Origin: Thermodesulfobacteriota bacterium | Lineage (GTDB): Bacteria; Desulfobacterota_D; UBA1144; Nemesobacterales; Nemesobacteraceae | Assembly (NCBI GenBank): GCA_965209225.1 | Contig: OZ242379.1 | Coordinates: forward strand, 934,762 to 998,761 | Length of the DNA stretch: 64,000 nt | Reading direction: 5' to 3' | Shown here: piece after piece, positions 11,309 through 16,832 of the stretch | How the letters are laid out: each line of letters begins with the position of its first letter | How positions within the stretch are numbered: position 1 is the first letter of the stretch | Notes under the pieces: model-generated | Databases searched by the model: none | The model's input: only the letters and a program-made list of their open reading frames with translations | Told to the model about the DNA's origin: nothing | Program-made: the position numbers and the translations under genes

Positions 11309-11635
11309 TCATCCCGGGCAGTAATAATCAGGTTGATTTTTCATTAATACTATATACAGGTTAGGGAGTATATGTTCGCAAAAATGGAGAAAGGATGAAA
11401 ACGGTAGCGACCGACCCACATGACTGGACCGCCGTTTGATGATTGTCTTGAACAGGTCCCACGCTCCCTCTATGCTGTTAATGTGAACATCATATACAAC
11501 CCACTGTTCTTCGGAATGGGTTGACAGTTTTATGGCGGGCATCTTGGTCTGCAATGCCAATATATAGGATTGAAGCTCATCCATGTAGATAGCCTCGGTT
11601 TTATCCTTTACGGCTCTTTTGATGAAGTCATGCAA
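11309..11635 (-). CDS. hypothetical protein at left edge of AT-rich defense islet
   Basis: 108-aa ORF, no motif recognised. Confidence 0.3.
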   Translation of the reverse strand: MHDFIKRAVKDKTEAIYMDELQSYILALQTKMPAIKLSTHSEEQWVVYDVHINSIEGAWDLFKTIIKRRSSHVGRSLPFSSFLHFCEHILPNLYIVLMKNQPDYYCPG

Positions 11636-11764
11636 AGTCTTTTCTTGACGTTCGGAATCTTGATACGGACTTTCCCTCGTTTGGTAGCACCCGCAAACCG
11701 AGCCTTATTGTCCTTATAAGCACAGTTCTTGCCCTATATAATGAAACTTTTTATTCTTAGCGAT

Positions 11765-12232
11765 TTACGATTTGTCTGATGATAGCGCTAACGTTATTTC
11801 TTTTAATACCTGTTTACGATTTTTCTTGATTTCATGTTCCCAAAACCGGAGAACTGTCCATCCGTTTCGTTTTAGATAAGCTGTGTTTCTTCTGTCTCGC
11901 TTGCGGTTGTTTTCTATTTTTTCCCTCCAGAAGTCATTTTTCAGCAAATGCTTCCATTTGGGATAATACCAACCATGCCAAAAATCGCTGTCTAAAAATA
12001 CGCAAACTTTATACTTTTGGAAAACTATGTCTGGTCTACCTCTAATTGAAATGACATTTGTCTGGAATTTCTTTCTCGTGATTTTTTTTAGTGCGTGCAC
12101 AATTTCTTGTTCAAATTTCGTTTCTTTTGAGCGAATCTTTGCCATTAATTCTGAGCGCTTTTCCGTTGAAAGCGAGTCATTGCTTCGTTCTTTTTTGAAG
12201 TTGCGATTCAAATAATTTTTTGTTCTTTTCAT
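11765..12232 (-). CDS. vsr: very short patch repair endonuclease
   Basis: RSELMAKIRSKETKFE, RGRPDIVF, VFLDSDFWHG and WEHE motifs of Vsr. Confidence 0.9.
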   Translation of the reverse strand: MKRTKNYLNRNFKKERSNDSLSTEKRSELMAKIRSKETKFEQEIVHALKKITRKKFQTNVISIRGRPDIVFQKYKVCVFLDSDFWHGWYYPKWKHLLKNDFWREKIENNRKRDRRNTAYLKRNGWTVLRFWEHEIKKNRKQVLKEITLALSSDKS

Positions 12233-13260
12233 GAAGTTCCAGAATCAAAGATATCCGAAGCTTTAACACCGTGTTTTGAGAAATTAAAATTCTCATCTAA
12301 CAACTTCTTCCACTGGTTTAGACGATTTTTTTTGGCGTTTTGTCGCCAATAATGATTTAGTTTTTCTTTGTCCATTGTTTTTATCTCACATCTGATCATA
12401 TTAGCTTTGGAGTGGAGATTATAGGCGATTCGCGGAACCAAGACGGATTTTTCTTTGATTGTTAGTTTTTTTCTTCCTCCTGCAGTGAACAAGTCTCTCA
12501 GGTTGGAAGCTATGACTCCATGCTCAGTCATGAGATAAGCGGAGACTCGTTGGAATTTCATCAAGCTCTCGCCAAAAATTTCTGGGAAAAGAATCATTAT
12601 CTCCGCTTTAATTTTTTCTTGTTTCTCCCTACGTAATCCTCTGTAAGGTTTAATTATGAAGTCAGAAGATTTGTCATCATTTTTGTCGATCCACCATAAT
12701 TCTTCTCCATCTTTTAGTATGCTTCTGTAGTAATCTTTTATTTTTCCTATTTTCTCATCGTCTTTTCGCAGTTTGTCGTAATCAACACCGATTTTGTCGA
12801 AAATAGATTCCCCTCTGGGTAAATTCATGTCTATACGGTAACGGGGCGAGTGAGTGACGCTCACGCCGGGTAGACATTCTTGGTATGGTCGATATCGAAC
12901 ATCCGGTGCGCCGCCAAGTTTCCCAAACATTATGTAAATTCGCTCAACATCCTCTCTGGATGATTCGAGGACACTGTTGCCGGTGGAAATCCAATGATCC
13001 TTTGAAGTCATTTTTACCTCGACGCCAAAGTATTTTTTAGCAACTATATCAGGGAAGGAGCGGGAATCTGTTTGTTGAATCTCTCCTTCGAAGCCGATTT
13101 CTTTGGCTTCTTTGCGCATTTTTTCATATACGAAGTTCTCAAAATCAATTGGTGAAATATTTTCCTCTTCAGGTAGAAAGTCGATCAGTAGTCTTCGAGT
13201 TTCTTCGAGAAGAGTTATAAATTCTTCTTCATCAAGGTCTGGGTTATTCACATAGATCAT
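12229..13260 (-). CDS. putative type II restriction endonuclease (PD-(D/E)xK), located between dcm and vsr
   Basis: FPDIVAKKYFGVEVK fits PD-x9-ExK. Its start ATG overlaps the dcm stop (ATGA coupling) when started at the internal Met (ORF track 12229-13311). Synteny M-R-V. Confidence 0.5.
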   Translation of the reverse strand: MIYVNNPDLDEEEFITLLEETRRLLIDFLPEEENISPIDFENFVYEKMRKEAKEIGFEGEIQQTDSRSFPDIVAKKYFGVEVKMTSKDHWISTGNSVLESSREDVERIYIMFGKLGGAPDVRYRPYQECLPGVSVTHSPRYRIDMNLPRGESIFDKIGVDYDKLRKDDEKIGKIKDYYRSILKDGEELWWIDKNDDKSSDFIIKPYRGLRREKQEKIKAEIMILFPEIFGESLMKFQRVSAYLMTEHGVIASNLRDLFTAGGRKKLTIKEKSVLVPRIAYNLHSKANMIRCEIKTMDKEKLNHYWRQNAKKNRLNQWKKLLDENFNFSKHGVKASDIFDSGTS

Positions 13261-14051
13261 GAATGCAGGTTCACGTTTATAAATTCTTCGATTGATGTTG
13301 CGAGATACCACGCAAGTACGGGAGGAACTGCGTTACCAATTTGCTTGTAGGCTTGCGATGTTGAAGGATAAAAAATAAAATCGTCAGGGAACGACTGTAT
13401 TCTTGCAGCTTCTCTGGCGGATAATCGCCGTTTGCCATTCCAGTGGAATTCAATGTTCCCGTGATGTTCTGTTCTCATAGTGGGACCAGGCTTATCAGGA
13501 TCTAAAATGTTATTCCCCTGTCCTTTGTTTTTTTTCGCTTTGGACCAATAATGATTAGGTAATTCTCCCTCCCTAACGGTTTCTAAATCACCAATAGCTT
13601 CCCTTAAGGTAATCCATTTGTTTTTATTTGGGGGTTTCGGGTATTCAAATGGAGGCAATTTGCTTCTCTTGGTGCCGATTATAAAAATTCGTTTTCTAGT
13701 CTGTGGGACGCCATAATCCGCTGCGATAAGTAGTTTGTAAACAACGTGATAACCTAAGTCTTCAAAATTATTGATTATGGTTTTTATCGCTTCACCGCGG
13801 TCTATAGTGAGAAGCCCTTGCACATTTTCTGCTACGAACACCAGAGGATTAGTCAACTGGACAACTTTGGCCATGCTTCTGTACAATGCACCCCGCTCGC
13901 TTTTTAAGCCTTTTCGTCTTCCAGCATGGCTAAAGTCTTGGCAGGGAAATCCCCCTAGAACAATATCTGTATTTATCTGGTGGTGATTATTGAAGGGAAA
14001 CAGACTTGGGTCTTTGCTGTTGCATATCTCCGTGATATCAGCATTTACCAA
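13257..14051 (-). CDS. dcm: DNA (cytosine-5)-methyltransferase, C-terminal part (motifs IV-X), lacks motif I because of an inversion
   Basis: GGFPCQDFSHAG (IV), ENV (VI), QTRKRIFIIG (VIII), REAARIQSFPDDF (IX), GNAVPPVLA (X); begins with TTG right at the inversion junction, stop codon immediately upstream. Confidence 0.85.
   Translation of the reverse strand: MVNADITEICNSKDPSLFPFNNHHQINTDIVLGGFPCQDFSHAGRRKGLKSERGALYRSMAKVVQLTNPLVFVAENVQGLLTIDRGEAIKTIINNFEDLGYHVVYKLLIAADYGVPQTRKRIFIIGTKRSKLPPFEYPKPPNKNKWITLREAIGDLETVREGELPNHYWSKAKKNKGQGNNILDPDKPGPTMRTEHHGNIEFHWNGKRRLSAREAARIQSFPDDFIFYPSTSQAYKQIGNAVPPVLAWYLATSIEEFINVNLHS
14036..14048. repeat. left 13-bp inverted repeat (tatcagcatttac) at inversion junction
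   Basis: Perfect reverse complement of 14298-14310. Confidence 0.85.
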
Positions 14052-14081
14052 GTATCAACAACCAAGTAAACTTACAATCAG

Positions 14082-14342
14082 TTGAAGAAAAGTACTTCTT
14101 TTGATGACACGGTTATGGAAGATAGGTTTTCTGTAGTTTCCCTTTTCACTGGTTGTGGAGGTCTTGATTTGGGGTTTGTGGGTGGTTTTACCTTTCTCGG
14201 ACAAAAATACGAAAAAAGAAGATTCAAGATCATCTGGGCCAATGACATAGACAAGTCTTCGTGTAAAACTTTTAGAAGCTATTTCAGTCACAACATAGTA
14301 AATGCTGATACTGCAAGTTTTAAATGTCCTGATCTTTCCTAA
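14082..14342 (+). CDS. dcm: N-terminal fragment of the same C5-methyltransferase (motifs I-II) encoded on the opposite strand
   Basis: SLFTGCGGLDLGF (motif I) and IIWANDIDKSSCKTF (motif II); ends ...HNIVNAD then diverges, whereas the minus-strand part starts VNADITEI. Confidence 0.8.
   Translation: MKKSTSFDDTVMEDRFSVVSLFTGCGGLDLGFVGGFTFLGQKYEKRRFKIIWANDIDKSSCKTFRSYFSHNIVNADTASFKCPDLS
14298..14310. repeat. right 13-bp inverted repeat (gtaaatgctgata) at inversion junction
   Basis: Perfect reverse complement of 14036-14048; the 249-bp segment 14049-14297 between them is inverted relative to the rest of dcm. Confidence 0.85.
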
Positions 14343-14427
14343 GGCTGCGAACAATAGAGTCTGACACCTCACGGCTTTAAACAGAACGGTTTAAGCGGAG
14401 GAAAATGGACACGGGAGCACAGAACGC

Positions 14428-15303
14428 ATGGAAAGCGAACAGATCCCCAGTTACGACGACTTGCTCTGGCCGACTCTAAAAGCACTGGAAGCAAGAGGTG
14501 GTTCTGCTTCCATTCAGGAGATTTCGGAACAGATAGCTTTTGATCTGGATTTGTCCGAATCAATTCTGAGCATTCCACACAAGCAGGGTTATCGTTCAGA
14601 GGTTGATTACCGTGCTGCGTGGGCACGTACTATGCTGAAGCGTATAGGTGCGGTTAAGAACTCTTTGCGAGGAATCTGGGCGATCACGGAAGCAGGACGA
14701 GATATCTCTACGGAAGAAGAAGTACGGAAGCGGGTTAGCAAATGGAGGCGTCAAGATACCGTCGCACGCCGTAAAGTGGGTAAGACCAAACACGGAGAAG
14801 GTGATTCTTCAACAAGTTCTTACGCTCAGACTAATGAAGATGAACAGGACTGGGTAGATGAGCTTCTTGAAAATATTCGCAGTATTAAGCCCGAGGCATT
14901 TGAACGTCTTTGTCAGCGCATTTTGCGGGAAGCGGGATTCATCAAAGTAGAAGTAACAGGCCGTTCCGGTGATGGAGGGATTGATGGTGCCGGGATACTC
15001 AGGGTCAACCTTCTTTCGTTCCATATCAGATTTCAGTGCAAGAGGTATTCTGGTTCGGTCAGCGCAAGTGAAATCCGCAATTTCAGGGGGGCTCTGGTCG
15101 GTCGTGCGGACAAAGGCCTTTTTATTACCACGGGAAGATTCACCAAGGATGCAGAACGAGAAGCTGTCAGATATGGGGCCCCTGCTATTGACTTGATCAA
15201 CGGTGTTGATTTTTGTTATTTGCTGAAGAAATTCGGTCTGGGAGTAAGGAGTGAACCTGCTGAGATCGTCAAACCTCAGCCAGAATTTTTCGAGAATTTC
15301 TGA
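14428..15303 (+). CDS. Mrr-like restriction endonuclease (Mrr_N winged helix + Mrr_cat), putative Type IV modification-dependent enzyme
   Basis: N-terminal YDDLLWPTLKAL (Mrr_N) and GRSGDGGIDGAGI...FQCKRY...GLFITTGRFT catalytic-core pattern. Confidence 0.8.
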   Translation: MESEQIPSYDDLLWPTLKALEARGGSASIQEISEQIAFDLDLSESILSIPHKQGYRSEVDYRAAWARTMLKRIGAVKNSLRGIWAITEAGRDISTEEEVRKRVSKWRRQDTVARRKVGKTKHGEGDSSTSSYAQTNEDEQDWVDELLENIRSIKPEAFERLCQRILREAGFIKVEVTGRSGDGGIDGAGILRVNLLSFHIRFQCKRYSGSVSASEIRNFRGALVGRADKGLFITTGRFTKDAEREAVRYGAPAIDLINGVDFCYLLKKFGLGVRSEPAEIVKPQPEFFENF

Positions 15304-15470
15304 TGGGCAATCCAAGTGTAGTTGCCTTAGCTCGAGTTCGTCAAATGATAAAAGGTTTTGAACTCACTGATGGTAAGCACTTTTAGCGGAACACACTTTT
15401 TCGCTTGGCACTACTGTTTTGTGAAGTTTCCTGTTTTCGGGTTTTTACATCAGGACGACTGTACTGACAA

Positions 15471-15498
15471 GTGTTCCAACCATGGTGTTCCAACCATG
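15471..15498. repeat. tandem 14-bp direct repeat (gtgttccaaccatg x2) upstream of recombinase gene
   Basis: Exact adjacent duplication; each copy is mostly palindromic around ccatgg. Confidence 0.6.
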
Positions 15499-15699
15499 TC
15501 CTTGTTAACCTACTGTATCTTGGCACCTATCCTCACCCAACTGTGCATACGCCTACGTATAGAATTTTACCTAAGCTTAAGAAGTCCCATTTTTTAAATA
15601 GCTTTTTTCTTCCGACCAACCTCCAGTATGTCTGTAGTTATAGAAGCCTTGAAAACAAATCGGATTTTCTCCATTAAAATCAAAATTAAGGAGGAAAAA

Positions 15700-16659
15700 A
15701 TGAAAGCAGAAAGAAAGGTTTTCTATAACAAGGTAGTTTCTTCTGCGTTGGCGCAGAACACCCACATAGCGTATGAAAAGGGTTGGCGGTGTTTTGAGGG
15801 TTACTGCTTTTCCCGGAATATAGATCCGTTTTCCATAACGCCGGAACAAACTGCCGATTTCATCATTGACTTGGCAACCAATCCTCGTCCTAAGAGTGGA
15901 AAAACTCTTTCGATTAGAACGGTTACCCTCTATAGGAGTGGAATAAATAAAAAATACGTCGAGGCCGAAAAAAACTCTCCGATGAATCATCCCAAGGTGA
16001 TGGCCGTGTTCAAAGGATTGGCAAGAATCAAAGGGACAGCGCCACGCCGTGTAAATGCGCTGAGAGAACATGAGGTCAAAAGAATGCTAGACCAATGTAC
16101 GGATACGCTTATCGGCAAGCGCAATGCGGCGATTCTGGCCGTCGGATTTGCTGGAGCCCTGAGACGTTCTGAAATCTGTGCGCTCACAACGAACGATGTT
16201 GAGTTCATAGAACCGCAGAACGCAAAGGACCCTTGGAAGATGTTCATTTATATACGAAAATCTAAGACCGACCAGGAAGGCAGGGGGCATAAGATTGCGA
16301 TACCGGAAGGAAGGTACGTAAAACCGATAAAGAGGCTTCAGGACTGGCTGGAAGCATCAGGAATTACGGAAGGTCCTCTTTTTCAGACGATGAAACGGGG
16401 AGGTCATATTAGGGGTTTTCCGATGCACCATTCGGATATTCCGAGACTGGTAAAACATTACGCGGCCCTTATCGGGCTGGATCCGAAACAGGTGTCAGGA
16501 CATTCACTCCGCGCGGGGTTTGTTACAAGCGCGGCCGTTCACCACGCGCGTCTTGACAAGATAATGGAAGTCACAAGACACTCAAACCCATCTACAGTGA
16601 TGAGATATATAAGGGATGTTGGCTATTTCGTGGATCATGCCGGAGAAAAGTTTTTATGA
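15700..16659 (+). CDS. site-specific tyrosine recombinase (phage integrase family)
   Basis: GHSLRAGF (HxxR) and RHSNPSTVMRYIR (catalytic Tyr) boxes; start at ATG 15700 preceded by aaggagg RBS (ORF track starts 15628). Confidence 0.85.
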   Translation: MKAERKVFYNKVVSSALAQNTHIAYEKGWRCFEGYCFSRNIDPFSITPEQTADFIIDLATNPRPKSGKTLSIRTVTLYRSGINKKYVEAEKNSPMNHPKVMAVFKGLARIKGTAPRRVNALREHEVKRMLDQCTDTLIGKRNAAILAVGFAGALRRSEICALTTNDVEFIEPQNAKDPWKMFIYIRKSKTDQEGRGHKIAIPEGRYVKPIKRLQDWLEASGITEGPLFQTMKRGGHIRGFPMHHSDIPRLVKHYAALIGLDPKQVSGHSLRAGFVTSAAVHHARLDKIMEVTRHSNPSTVMRYIRDVGYFVDHAGEKFL

Positions 16660-16832
16660 TACGACTAAACCAAGGATAACCGAGTTAGTCTTTTGACTTG
16701 AGACTTCTATTTGGTGCTTGCGAAAAGAGACCCTGAACAAGCACGTCTGTTTTTGTACATTGTCAAGATGAATTGTTATACTCTTGGGGAAAATCTTTTT
16801 CTTCAATCAATTTCCCCGGAGGAACATAGCAG

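Follow-up and report, generated by a model that had tools for sequence, protein, structure and literature searches.

A stretch of 64,000 nt from contig OZ242379.1 of a Thermodesulfobacteriota bacterium contains a C5 methyltransferase gene that is interrupted at a 249 bp segment between two short inverted repeats, with the 5' end of the gene lying on the strand opposite to the remainder. We refer to the whole stretch as the window, and all window coordinates count from its first letter. With a probability of about 80%, we interpret this locus as a genuine programmed and reversible inversion (an inverton) that switches a Type II 5-methylcytosine (m5C) restriction-modification (RM) operon, captured in the window in its OFF state. 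An initial annotation of the window had proposed that an inversion switch interrupts the reading frame of a Type II m5C methyltransferase, and this proposal is supported by the occurrence of both orientations in nature, by inverted repeats that change in concert, by purifying selection on the gene parts, by a linked recombinase gene and by contigs that break at the repeats. Features of the locus are listed in Table 1.

The two inverted repeats, referred to here as arms, are exact reverse complements over 13 bp, as the initial annotation described; identity ends at 13 nt, with 17/23 matching upon extension. The motifs of the methyltransferase are divided between two open reading frames (ORFs) on opposite strands, motifs I-II in the ORF at 14082-14342 (+) and motifs III/IV-X in the ORF at 13257-14051 (-). 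As the segment now lies, the N-terminal fragment ends in VNAD and a short tail, with VNAD encoded by the right arm; after inversion to ON, this arm would fall between genes and adjoin mrr. The C part has neither an ATG of its own nor a Shine-Dalgarno sequence, and offers only a TTG. Reverse complementing positions 14049-14297 in silico restores, as had been claimed, a single unbroken minus-strand ORF of 324 aa from an ATG now at 14115. The restored protein, a Dcm-type methyltransferase (MEDRF...FSHNI-VNADITEIC...NLHS, with the junction at FSHNI/VNADITEIC), matches PF00145 (1.7e-74) and TIGR00675 (2e-73), and all conserved motifs are present. The product thus depends on orientation, either an intact ORF of 324 aa or fragments of 86 aa and 264 aa on opposite strands. 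The arm junction reads ...CACAACATA/GTAAATGCKGATA/TCACGGAG in the ON form and ...ACTTG/GTAAATGCKGATA/TCACGG in the OFF form. The gene for a separate restriction endonuclease (REase) begins with an ATG that overlaps the methyltransferase stop codon (ATGA), and a C5 methyltransferase, a separate REase and Vsr in one operon with gene overlaps constitute a predicted Type II RM system with Vsr.

A 13 bp inverted repeat is not rare, and the repeat alone proves nothing. Three perfect 13 bp inverted-repeat pairs within 500 bp are present in the window, compared with 0.67 expected by chance. The two other pairs (2628-2640/2917-2929 and 3442-3454/3947-3959) are in or between ispH (LytB), pyrF and a metallo-beta-lactamase-fold gene; we take these pairs in housekeeping genes as chance matches, and they serve as a control for the low weight of a repeat by itself. 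The arms at the methyltransferase gain significance because they coincide with the gene break and because of the comparative evidence. No second copy of the N-terminal region, or of any methyltransferase fragment, is present in the locus, and a Tandem Repeats Finder analysis of 11700-16700 gave the 14 bp x 2 element at 15471-15498 as the sole repeat, with no simple sequence repeat in these genes.

Relatives were found using the restored protein as query, which gave 264-aa truncated matches at 98% and 88% identity, and a genome-collection scan added one more, L008; a scan of JGI metagenomes yielded no relatives at 80% identity or above. The cassette, comprising a tyrosine recombinase, mrr or another restriction gene, the methyltransferase, the endonuclease and vsr, was found in four further lineages, and in three of these the N-terminal block is on the opposite strand, as in the window. 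The first, L002, is a Candidatus Dadabacteria metagenome-assembled genome (MAG) at 98% identity with the same arms as the window and the synteny aroC-epimerase-recombinase-mrr-switch. The second (L001/L172, from ENA, 88% identity) has arms TTTCCGCATTTAC / GTAAATGCGGATA with a 12/13 match, and the third (L008/L176/L178, a MAG labelled Spirochaetia, 83% identity) has exact arms, TATCCGCATTTAC / GTAAATGCGGATA. The presence of the OFF state in independent assemblies of four lineages, the window included, excludes misassembly.

The fourth further lineage carries the gene in its restored form. P0242, a 324-aa member of the 90%-identity cluster of the L001-type protein, is encoded on contig L179, where recombinase, mrr, full-length methyltransferase, REase and vsr genes are arranged in the ON state, with perfect 13/13 arms at 8923-8935 and 9184-9196. 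By blastn, L179 is collinear with L008, L001 and the window, and the sole structural difference is that the block from arm to arm is reversed. The reversed block has 90.9% identity to L008 (flanks 87% and 84%), 92.6% to L001 (flank 93.2%) and 78% to the window (flank 85.8%). One base of the arm varies between lineages, and always in both arms together, being GCTGA in the window and L002 and GCGGA in L001, L008 and L179. Neighbour-joining trees, built for each of the two gene parts, place L179 (ON) as the sister of L001 (OFF) with 5.5% nucleotide divergence, nested among OFF loci and with outgroups that are all contiguous. To explain this position, inversion at these 13 bp must have happened twice or more.

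The two parts of the gene differ in divergence between L001 and L008, where synonymous divergence (dS) is 0.23 in the invertible segment (3463-3645 / 5757-5939; 5.5% of nucleotides) and 0.91 in the C part (3710-4498 / 6004-6792; 17.7%). This pattern indicates a mosaic history, in which the segment or its flank was exchanged between the L001 and L008 lineages with a boundary at the arm.

Ratios of nonsynonymous to synonymous divergence (dN/dS) were computed among the window, L001 and L008, for which dS is 0.7-1.1. Values are 0.08-0.11 for the N part of the methyltransferase, 0.07-0.08 for the C part, 0.10 for the REase, 0.065 for vsr and 0.07 for the recombinase, and neither methyltransferase half has a stop codon or frameshift in any arm-bearing lineage. 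Judged from these substitution patterns, both halves are under purifying selection and are not decaying. The arms are maintained together with the recombinase gene, an orthologue of which (74-99% identity) adjoins the switch in 5/5 lineages with arms matching at 12-13/13 and is absent in 2/2 relatives with degenerate arms. The latter, L004 and L005, have contiguous genes and arms matching at 8/13 and 9/13 respectively. This linkage holds in L001 although the gene between recombinase and switch differs. Among ~150 more distant family loci we found no inverted repeat of at least 12 nt between the upstream region and the equivalent gene part. The peptide encoded by the arm is V-N-A-D-I in the switch clade and V-C-G-D-I in the outgroups, and the motif III codons thus seem adapted to the recombination site.

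Both relatives without the recombinase show damage to the operon. In L005 (8001-12700) insertion sequence (IS) elements (DDE_3, rve) cut the 3' end of the methyltransferase gene and split the REase gene, and in L004 (4264-6260) frameshifts interrupt the methyltransferase gene in its N-terminal region and the REase gene close to its 3' end, on a contig of 2x coverage in which sequencing error is possible.

Further evidence comes from where contigs of five independent assemblies end. L173 (an ENA scaffold) and L174, L175 and L177 (Logan), which derive from different samples, each start at the first base of the arm homologous to the right arm of the window, and L003 starts 17 nt inside the segment, exactly 30 nt (k-1) from the outer end of the arm; Logan assemblies use k = 31. 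A repeat of 13 nt alone cannot break a de Bruijn graph; ends at the arms are expected if the reads hold both orientations.

We propose that recombination between the arms, one inside the methyltransferase motif III codons and the other intergenic toward mrr, would flip the 249 bp containing the leader and the first 61 codons. In the ON state a single mRNA would encode the methyltransferase, the endonuclease (through ATGA coupling) and Vsr; in the OFF state the methyltransferase is broken in two, and expression of the endonuclease and vsr is expected to cease with it. The Cre/Xer-like tyrosine recombinase encoded next to the switch would be the most likely catalyst. The 13 bp would hold the strand-exchange (overlap) region, where partner sites must match, and the T/G change in both arms could be accounted for because heteroduplex repair in the overlap region would spread a mutation.

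The segment probably also carries a promoter. A putative sigma-70-like promoter block, which takes its first nucleotides from the left arm, is conserved in all relatives including the contiguous ones (L001, L008, L004, L005 and L179). A consensus promoter scan misses this block, which agrees at 8/12 positions and falls below the 9/12 threshold; upstream of the methyltransferase C part no promoter was predicted. Together with a C part that lacks a Shine-Dalgarno sequence and an ATG, the ATGA coupling would keep the REase silent in the OFF state. The REase must stay silent, given that four living lineages have OFF as their consensus state. There is a promoter-like site at 13741-13713 (-) within the C part (TTTACA-17-GATTAT, 9/12) that points to the REase and, if active, would express it in the OFF state; the site is located in conserved motif VIII codons and may be coincidental.

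The recombinase fits the simple two-domain, Xer/Cre-like class: its R, HxxR, H and Y residues can be aligned with those of XerD, and it matches Cre weakly over the full length. None of the named NCBIfam equivalogs scores above its cut-off. Many assemblies from Dadabacteria-like and other symbionts contain members of this large family at 60-88% identity. One member, in L167 (2283-7966; JGI 3300012932, Ga0157522_1000300), is 87% identical and occupies the same chromosomal slot next to epimerase-aroC, with a cargo of a PLD/SNF2 helicase, a 1141-aa Eco57I/MmeI-type enzyme and an inverted TaqI_C cassette whose inverted repeat of 155 nt has a near-perfect core of 66 nt. From its organization this cargo looks like a shufflon of target recognition domains (TRDs), and this type of locus was validated as a programmed inversion by Milman et al. 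(PMC9881135). The same repeat arm, TTAGTTTCATTATCAAyGATrAAAGC..., is found ~100 nt upstream of recombinase orthologues in L170 (1-130), L171 (1-130), L168 (~700-830) and L001 (upstream of the integrase), and contigs L170 (ENA) and L171 (Logan) both begin inside it, which suggests further unresolved invertible or variable regions. The slot next to epimerase-aroC acts as a hot spot for defence genes, the cargo of which can be exchanged and inverted. The evidence from L167, L168 and L170 supports an invertase role for the recombinase, and we consider it fairly probable, with some reserve, that the adjacent recombinase catalyses the inversion in the window.

Several observations weigh against a programmed switch of this kind. 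The consensus is OFF in four lineages and ON in one, and switching may be strongly biased or rare. The REase is free-standing, such that passage from ON to OFF should risk post-segregational self-restriction, which makes frequent reversible switching awkward. Coexistence of both orientations in one population or clone is suggested by the contig ends, which could also reflect another structural variant bounded by the arms. As to the recombinase, the 13 bp arms bear no likeness to the long repeat in L167, a search of L167 with the arm sequence for a shared recombinase site gave nothing above chance, and dyad half-sites sought by eye around the arms revealed no convincing binding-site architecture. 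Lying where the variable cargo begins, the recombinase gene could just as well serve in the exchange of islands.

In one alternative the arms are true recombination sites and the segment inverts, but by means of another enzyme or RecA-independent template switching between the short repeats, with the adjacent recombinase serving only to integrate or exchange cargo of the defence island. Like an island integrase, the recombinase gene is at the border of housekeeping genes and variable defence cargo (in the window, L167, L008/L170 and L179), the cargo differs between genomes at the same slot, and no recombinase binding motif in common with L167 was found. We nonetheless regard this alternative as unlikely. 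The orthologue is present in all five lineages with well-matched arms and is missing from both with degenerate ones, and in L167, L168 and L170 the same recombinase family adjoins an inverted-repeat cassette of a validated locus type (PMC9881135). Furthermore, a repeat of 13 bp is too short for efficient homologous recombination, and the maintenance of perfect, co-varying arms points to a selected site.

A second alternative is that the inversion is old and stable and that an active methyltransferase forms from the two polypeptides, in the manner of M.AquI or M.EcoHK31I. There are precedents for C5-methyltransferases with two subunits or with complementing fragments (PMC3404938), purifying selection acts on both fragments, and the split state is common to four lineages. 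However, a contiguous ON version with identical arms is sister to a split version, and the C fragment has only a TTG, with no Shine-Dalgarno sequence and no predicted upstream promoter. The natural splits fall between motifs VIII and IX, in the variable region, and not in motif III (PMC3404938), and a fixed split would not retain 13/13 arms that co-vary. We consider a fixed split gene improbable.

From the window alone a one-off accidental inversion leaving a pseudogene in decay could not be told from a switch, and a 13 bp repeat within 500 bp occurs ~0.7 times per window by chance. This reading becomes highly improbable when relatives are included, as there are no frameshifts or stops, dN/dS is ~0.1 at dS of ~1, the inversion has recurred and is reversed in L179, and the arms are kept. 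An assembly artefact, a chimeric join at a short repeat, has nothing in its favour beyond the general possibility in metagenome assemblies and its probability is negligible, as the same structure is present in NCBI, ENA and Logan assemblies from different samples and lineages and on a 2.28-Mb contig with a 100%-identical recombinase, and a 13-nt repeat is shorter than any assembler k-mer. Misassembly and a fixed dead gene were what the initial annotation had named as counter-explanations, and both are rejected by recurrence in independent assemblies together with dN/dS.

The programmed inversion may have a second output. The initial annotation identified the other genes of the locus but overlooked mrr, which lies downstream of the flipped segment in the present orientation. 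This raises the possibility of a two-way toggle, in which the segment carries the only promoter and drives methyltransferase-REase-Vsr in the ON state and mrr in the OFF state; we advance this tentatively and rate it at somewhat less than even odds. In its favour, the conserved promoter-like block straddles the arm boundary. An OFF transcript would pass first through the ORF of the N fragment and next through mrr. The stretch from the segment to mrr has no predicted terminator, the first terminator-like site being after mrr, and the RNA between arm and mrr has no significant fold (z = -1.24). In L001/L172 (5294-6904) mrr is replaced by a gene for a 536-aa N6_N4 methyltransferase fused to a Mrr_cat-type nuclease domain. 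The stop codon of the L001 N-fragment ORF overlaps the ATG of this gene (AGATGATGG) 13 nt beyond the arm, and this leaves no room for a separate promoter of the neighbouring gene. The overlap looks like an operon made by the OFF orientation, and the OFF state in L001 could, on an equally tentative toggle reading, drive the N6/N4-methyltransferase-nuclease fusion in place of mrr.

Gene-altering and partial-intergenic invertons have been reported previously (Milman et al. 2023, PMC9881135; Chanin et al. 2023, 10.1101/2023.03.11.532203; Ni et al. 2025, PMC11741434), among them cases in which an invertase gene adjoins methyltransferase genes or specificity genes that contain inverted repeats (PMC11741434). 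The initial annotation's view that the mechanism is uncommon therefore stands for the target and the architecture, but not for invertons of these kinds, which, Type IIG examples included, had already been described (PMC9881135; 10.1101/2023.03.11.532203; PMC11741434). Gene-altering invertons resemble the window in having one arm in coding sequence and one outside it, with a recombinase gene nearby; RM genes are favoured targets, and heterogeneity in methylation or defence results. The described RM invertons swap TRD cassettes of Type I hsdS, Type IIG (Eco57I/Cj0031-like), BREX PglX and DISARM genes and have long repeats and a silent partial gene copy, whereas the window has 13 bp arms and no alternative cassette. 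Without an alternative cassette, the output would be ON/OFF control of the methyltransferase-REase-Vsr operon and not a change of specificity. We also considered a shufflon or TRD-swapping inversion, which is ruled out by the lack of a second homologous coding cassette in the locus.

In form the locus also resembles fimS of Escherichia coli, which FimB and FimE invert: an element of ~300 bp with very short arms, tyrosine recombinases encoded next door, a promoter on the element (here probably), an ON/OFF output and a possible directional bias. The fimS arms are 9 bp. It differs in that fimS is wholly intergenic, whereas in the window an arm sits in motif III codons, the element holds 61 codons and the OFF state truncates a protein; the window recombinase, which is Xer/Cre-like, is only distantly related to those of fimS. 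In the sap inversion of Campylobacter fetus one promoter serves opposed genes, as proposed here for the operon and mrr, but that system uses long homologous 5' regions, is RecA-dependent and gives S-layer antigenic variation, and the two-way output in the window is conjectural. Phasevarions of Type III, Type I and Type IIG systems (reviewed in references cited by PMC11741434) share stochastic methyltransferase ON/OFF switching with potential genome-wide epigenetic and defence effects. They switch through slippage in simple sequence repeats, of which the window genes have none, and their restriction depends on the Mod or S subunit, whereas the REase in the window is free-standing. M.AquI and M.EcoHK31I likewise have C5 motifs spread over two ORFs (PMC3404938). 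Their split falls within the variable region or close to it, and each ORF has its own signals for expression (PMC3404938), whereas the split in the window is in motif III, is caused by inversion, is reversible, and leaves a C part without translation signals.

Our literature searches returned neither an inversion-controlled classical Type II m5C methyltransferase nor a Mrr toggle, although absence there is not proof. The novelty is in the target, a Type II m5C methyltransferase of the classical kind accompanied by Vsr and a free-standing REase, and in the architecture, rather than in the principle of inversion. The architecture differs in the lack of an alternative cassette, in a very short arm within motif III and, possibly, in the use of the segment as a two-way promoter facing a Type IV enzyme.

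Classical Type II systems whose endonuclease is free-standing are, in general, not considered phase-variable. A cell that lost the methyltransferase but retained the endonuclease should die. The switch described here may get round such self-killing, and would offer a natural design for a phase-varying Type II system: inversion would remove both the promoter and the 5' end of the first gene in a translationally coupled operon, and all three genes would consequently fall silent as a unit. In this locus, moreover, a conserved motif of a catalytic domain contains a short recombination site. If the toggle is true, the lineage would alternate between an m5C-writing defence and a defence directed at modified DNA, and these modes may not be compatible within a single cell; it would then be a compact answer to the conflict between methylating and methylation-dependent defences, and would generate heritable heterogeneity, both epigenetic and in defence, among uncultured Dadabacteria-like symbionts. 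The element of 275 bp and its 319-aa recombinase are small enough to test, and possibly to reuse as a genetic switch.

Table 1. Coordinates of the invertible segment, its arms and the neighbouring genes in the window.
Feature	Position	Strand	Description
vsr, very-short-patch repair endonuclease	11765-12232	-	PF03852, TIGR00632, PADLOC Vsr; last operon gene
Type II restriction endonuclease (predicted)	12229-13260	-	343 aa; PADLOC REase_II 1.6e-44, full length
Methyltransferase C part	13257-14048	-	263 codons + stop; motifs III-X: PCQ, ENV, QxRxR, GNAVPP
Left arm	14036-14048		TATCAGCATTTAC; minus strand encodes V-N-A-D-I, methyltransferase motif III
Putative sigma-70-like promoter	14044-14072	+	-35 TTTACC (last 5 arm nt + 1), 17-nt spacer, -10 TAAACT
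Invertible segment	14049-14297	+	249 bp; conserved non-coding leader and first 61 methyltransferase codons (motifs I-II); now OFF
N-terminal fragment ORF	14115-14342	+	M1-I61, arm-encoded VNAD, 11-codon tail, stop
Right arm	14298-14310		GTAAATGCTGATA; exact reverse complement of left arm
mrr, predicted Type IV methylation-dependent endonuclease	14428-15303	+	Mrr_N + Mrr_cat; PADLOC mREase_IV 7.5e-28
14 bp x 2 tandem repeat	15471-15498	+	hairpin CATGGTGTTCCAACCATG + T-rich tail; terminator-like, after mrr
Tyrosine recombinase, candidate invertase	15700-16659	+	319 aa from ATG behind AAGGAGG; ORF open from 15628; PF00589 8.2e-16

The neighbouring genes vsr, REase and tyrosine recombinase are as noted in the initial annotation, with assignments borne out by PF03852/TIGR00632, PADLOC and PF00589. 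The REase has no Pfam match and is kept in all relatives. The 14 bp tandem repeat reported in front of the recombinase gene is indeed present, but it forms a terminator-like hairpin after mrr and is not an evident recombination site. A role as a recombination or attachment site was rejected, as a terminator hairpin fits better and the repeat is missing upstream of the L001, L008 and L167 recombinase orthologues.

A partial IS1595-family transposase fragment (11309-11635, minus strand; NCBIfam NF033547, 2.9e-6) separates queA from vsr where the island begins on the left, and no tRNA was found at either island border. Between the right arm and mrr, just upstream of the GGAGG that precedes mrr, two copies of G(C/G)TTTAA(A/G)C with AGAAC between them are located at 14373-14396. 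The pair is conserved in L008 and L179, with A/G swapped between the copies in L008, and it may correspond to a regulator-binding site or a weak hairpin.

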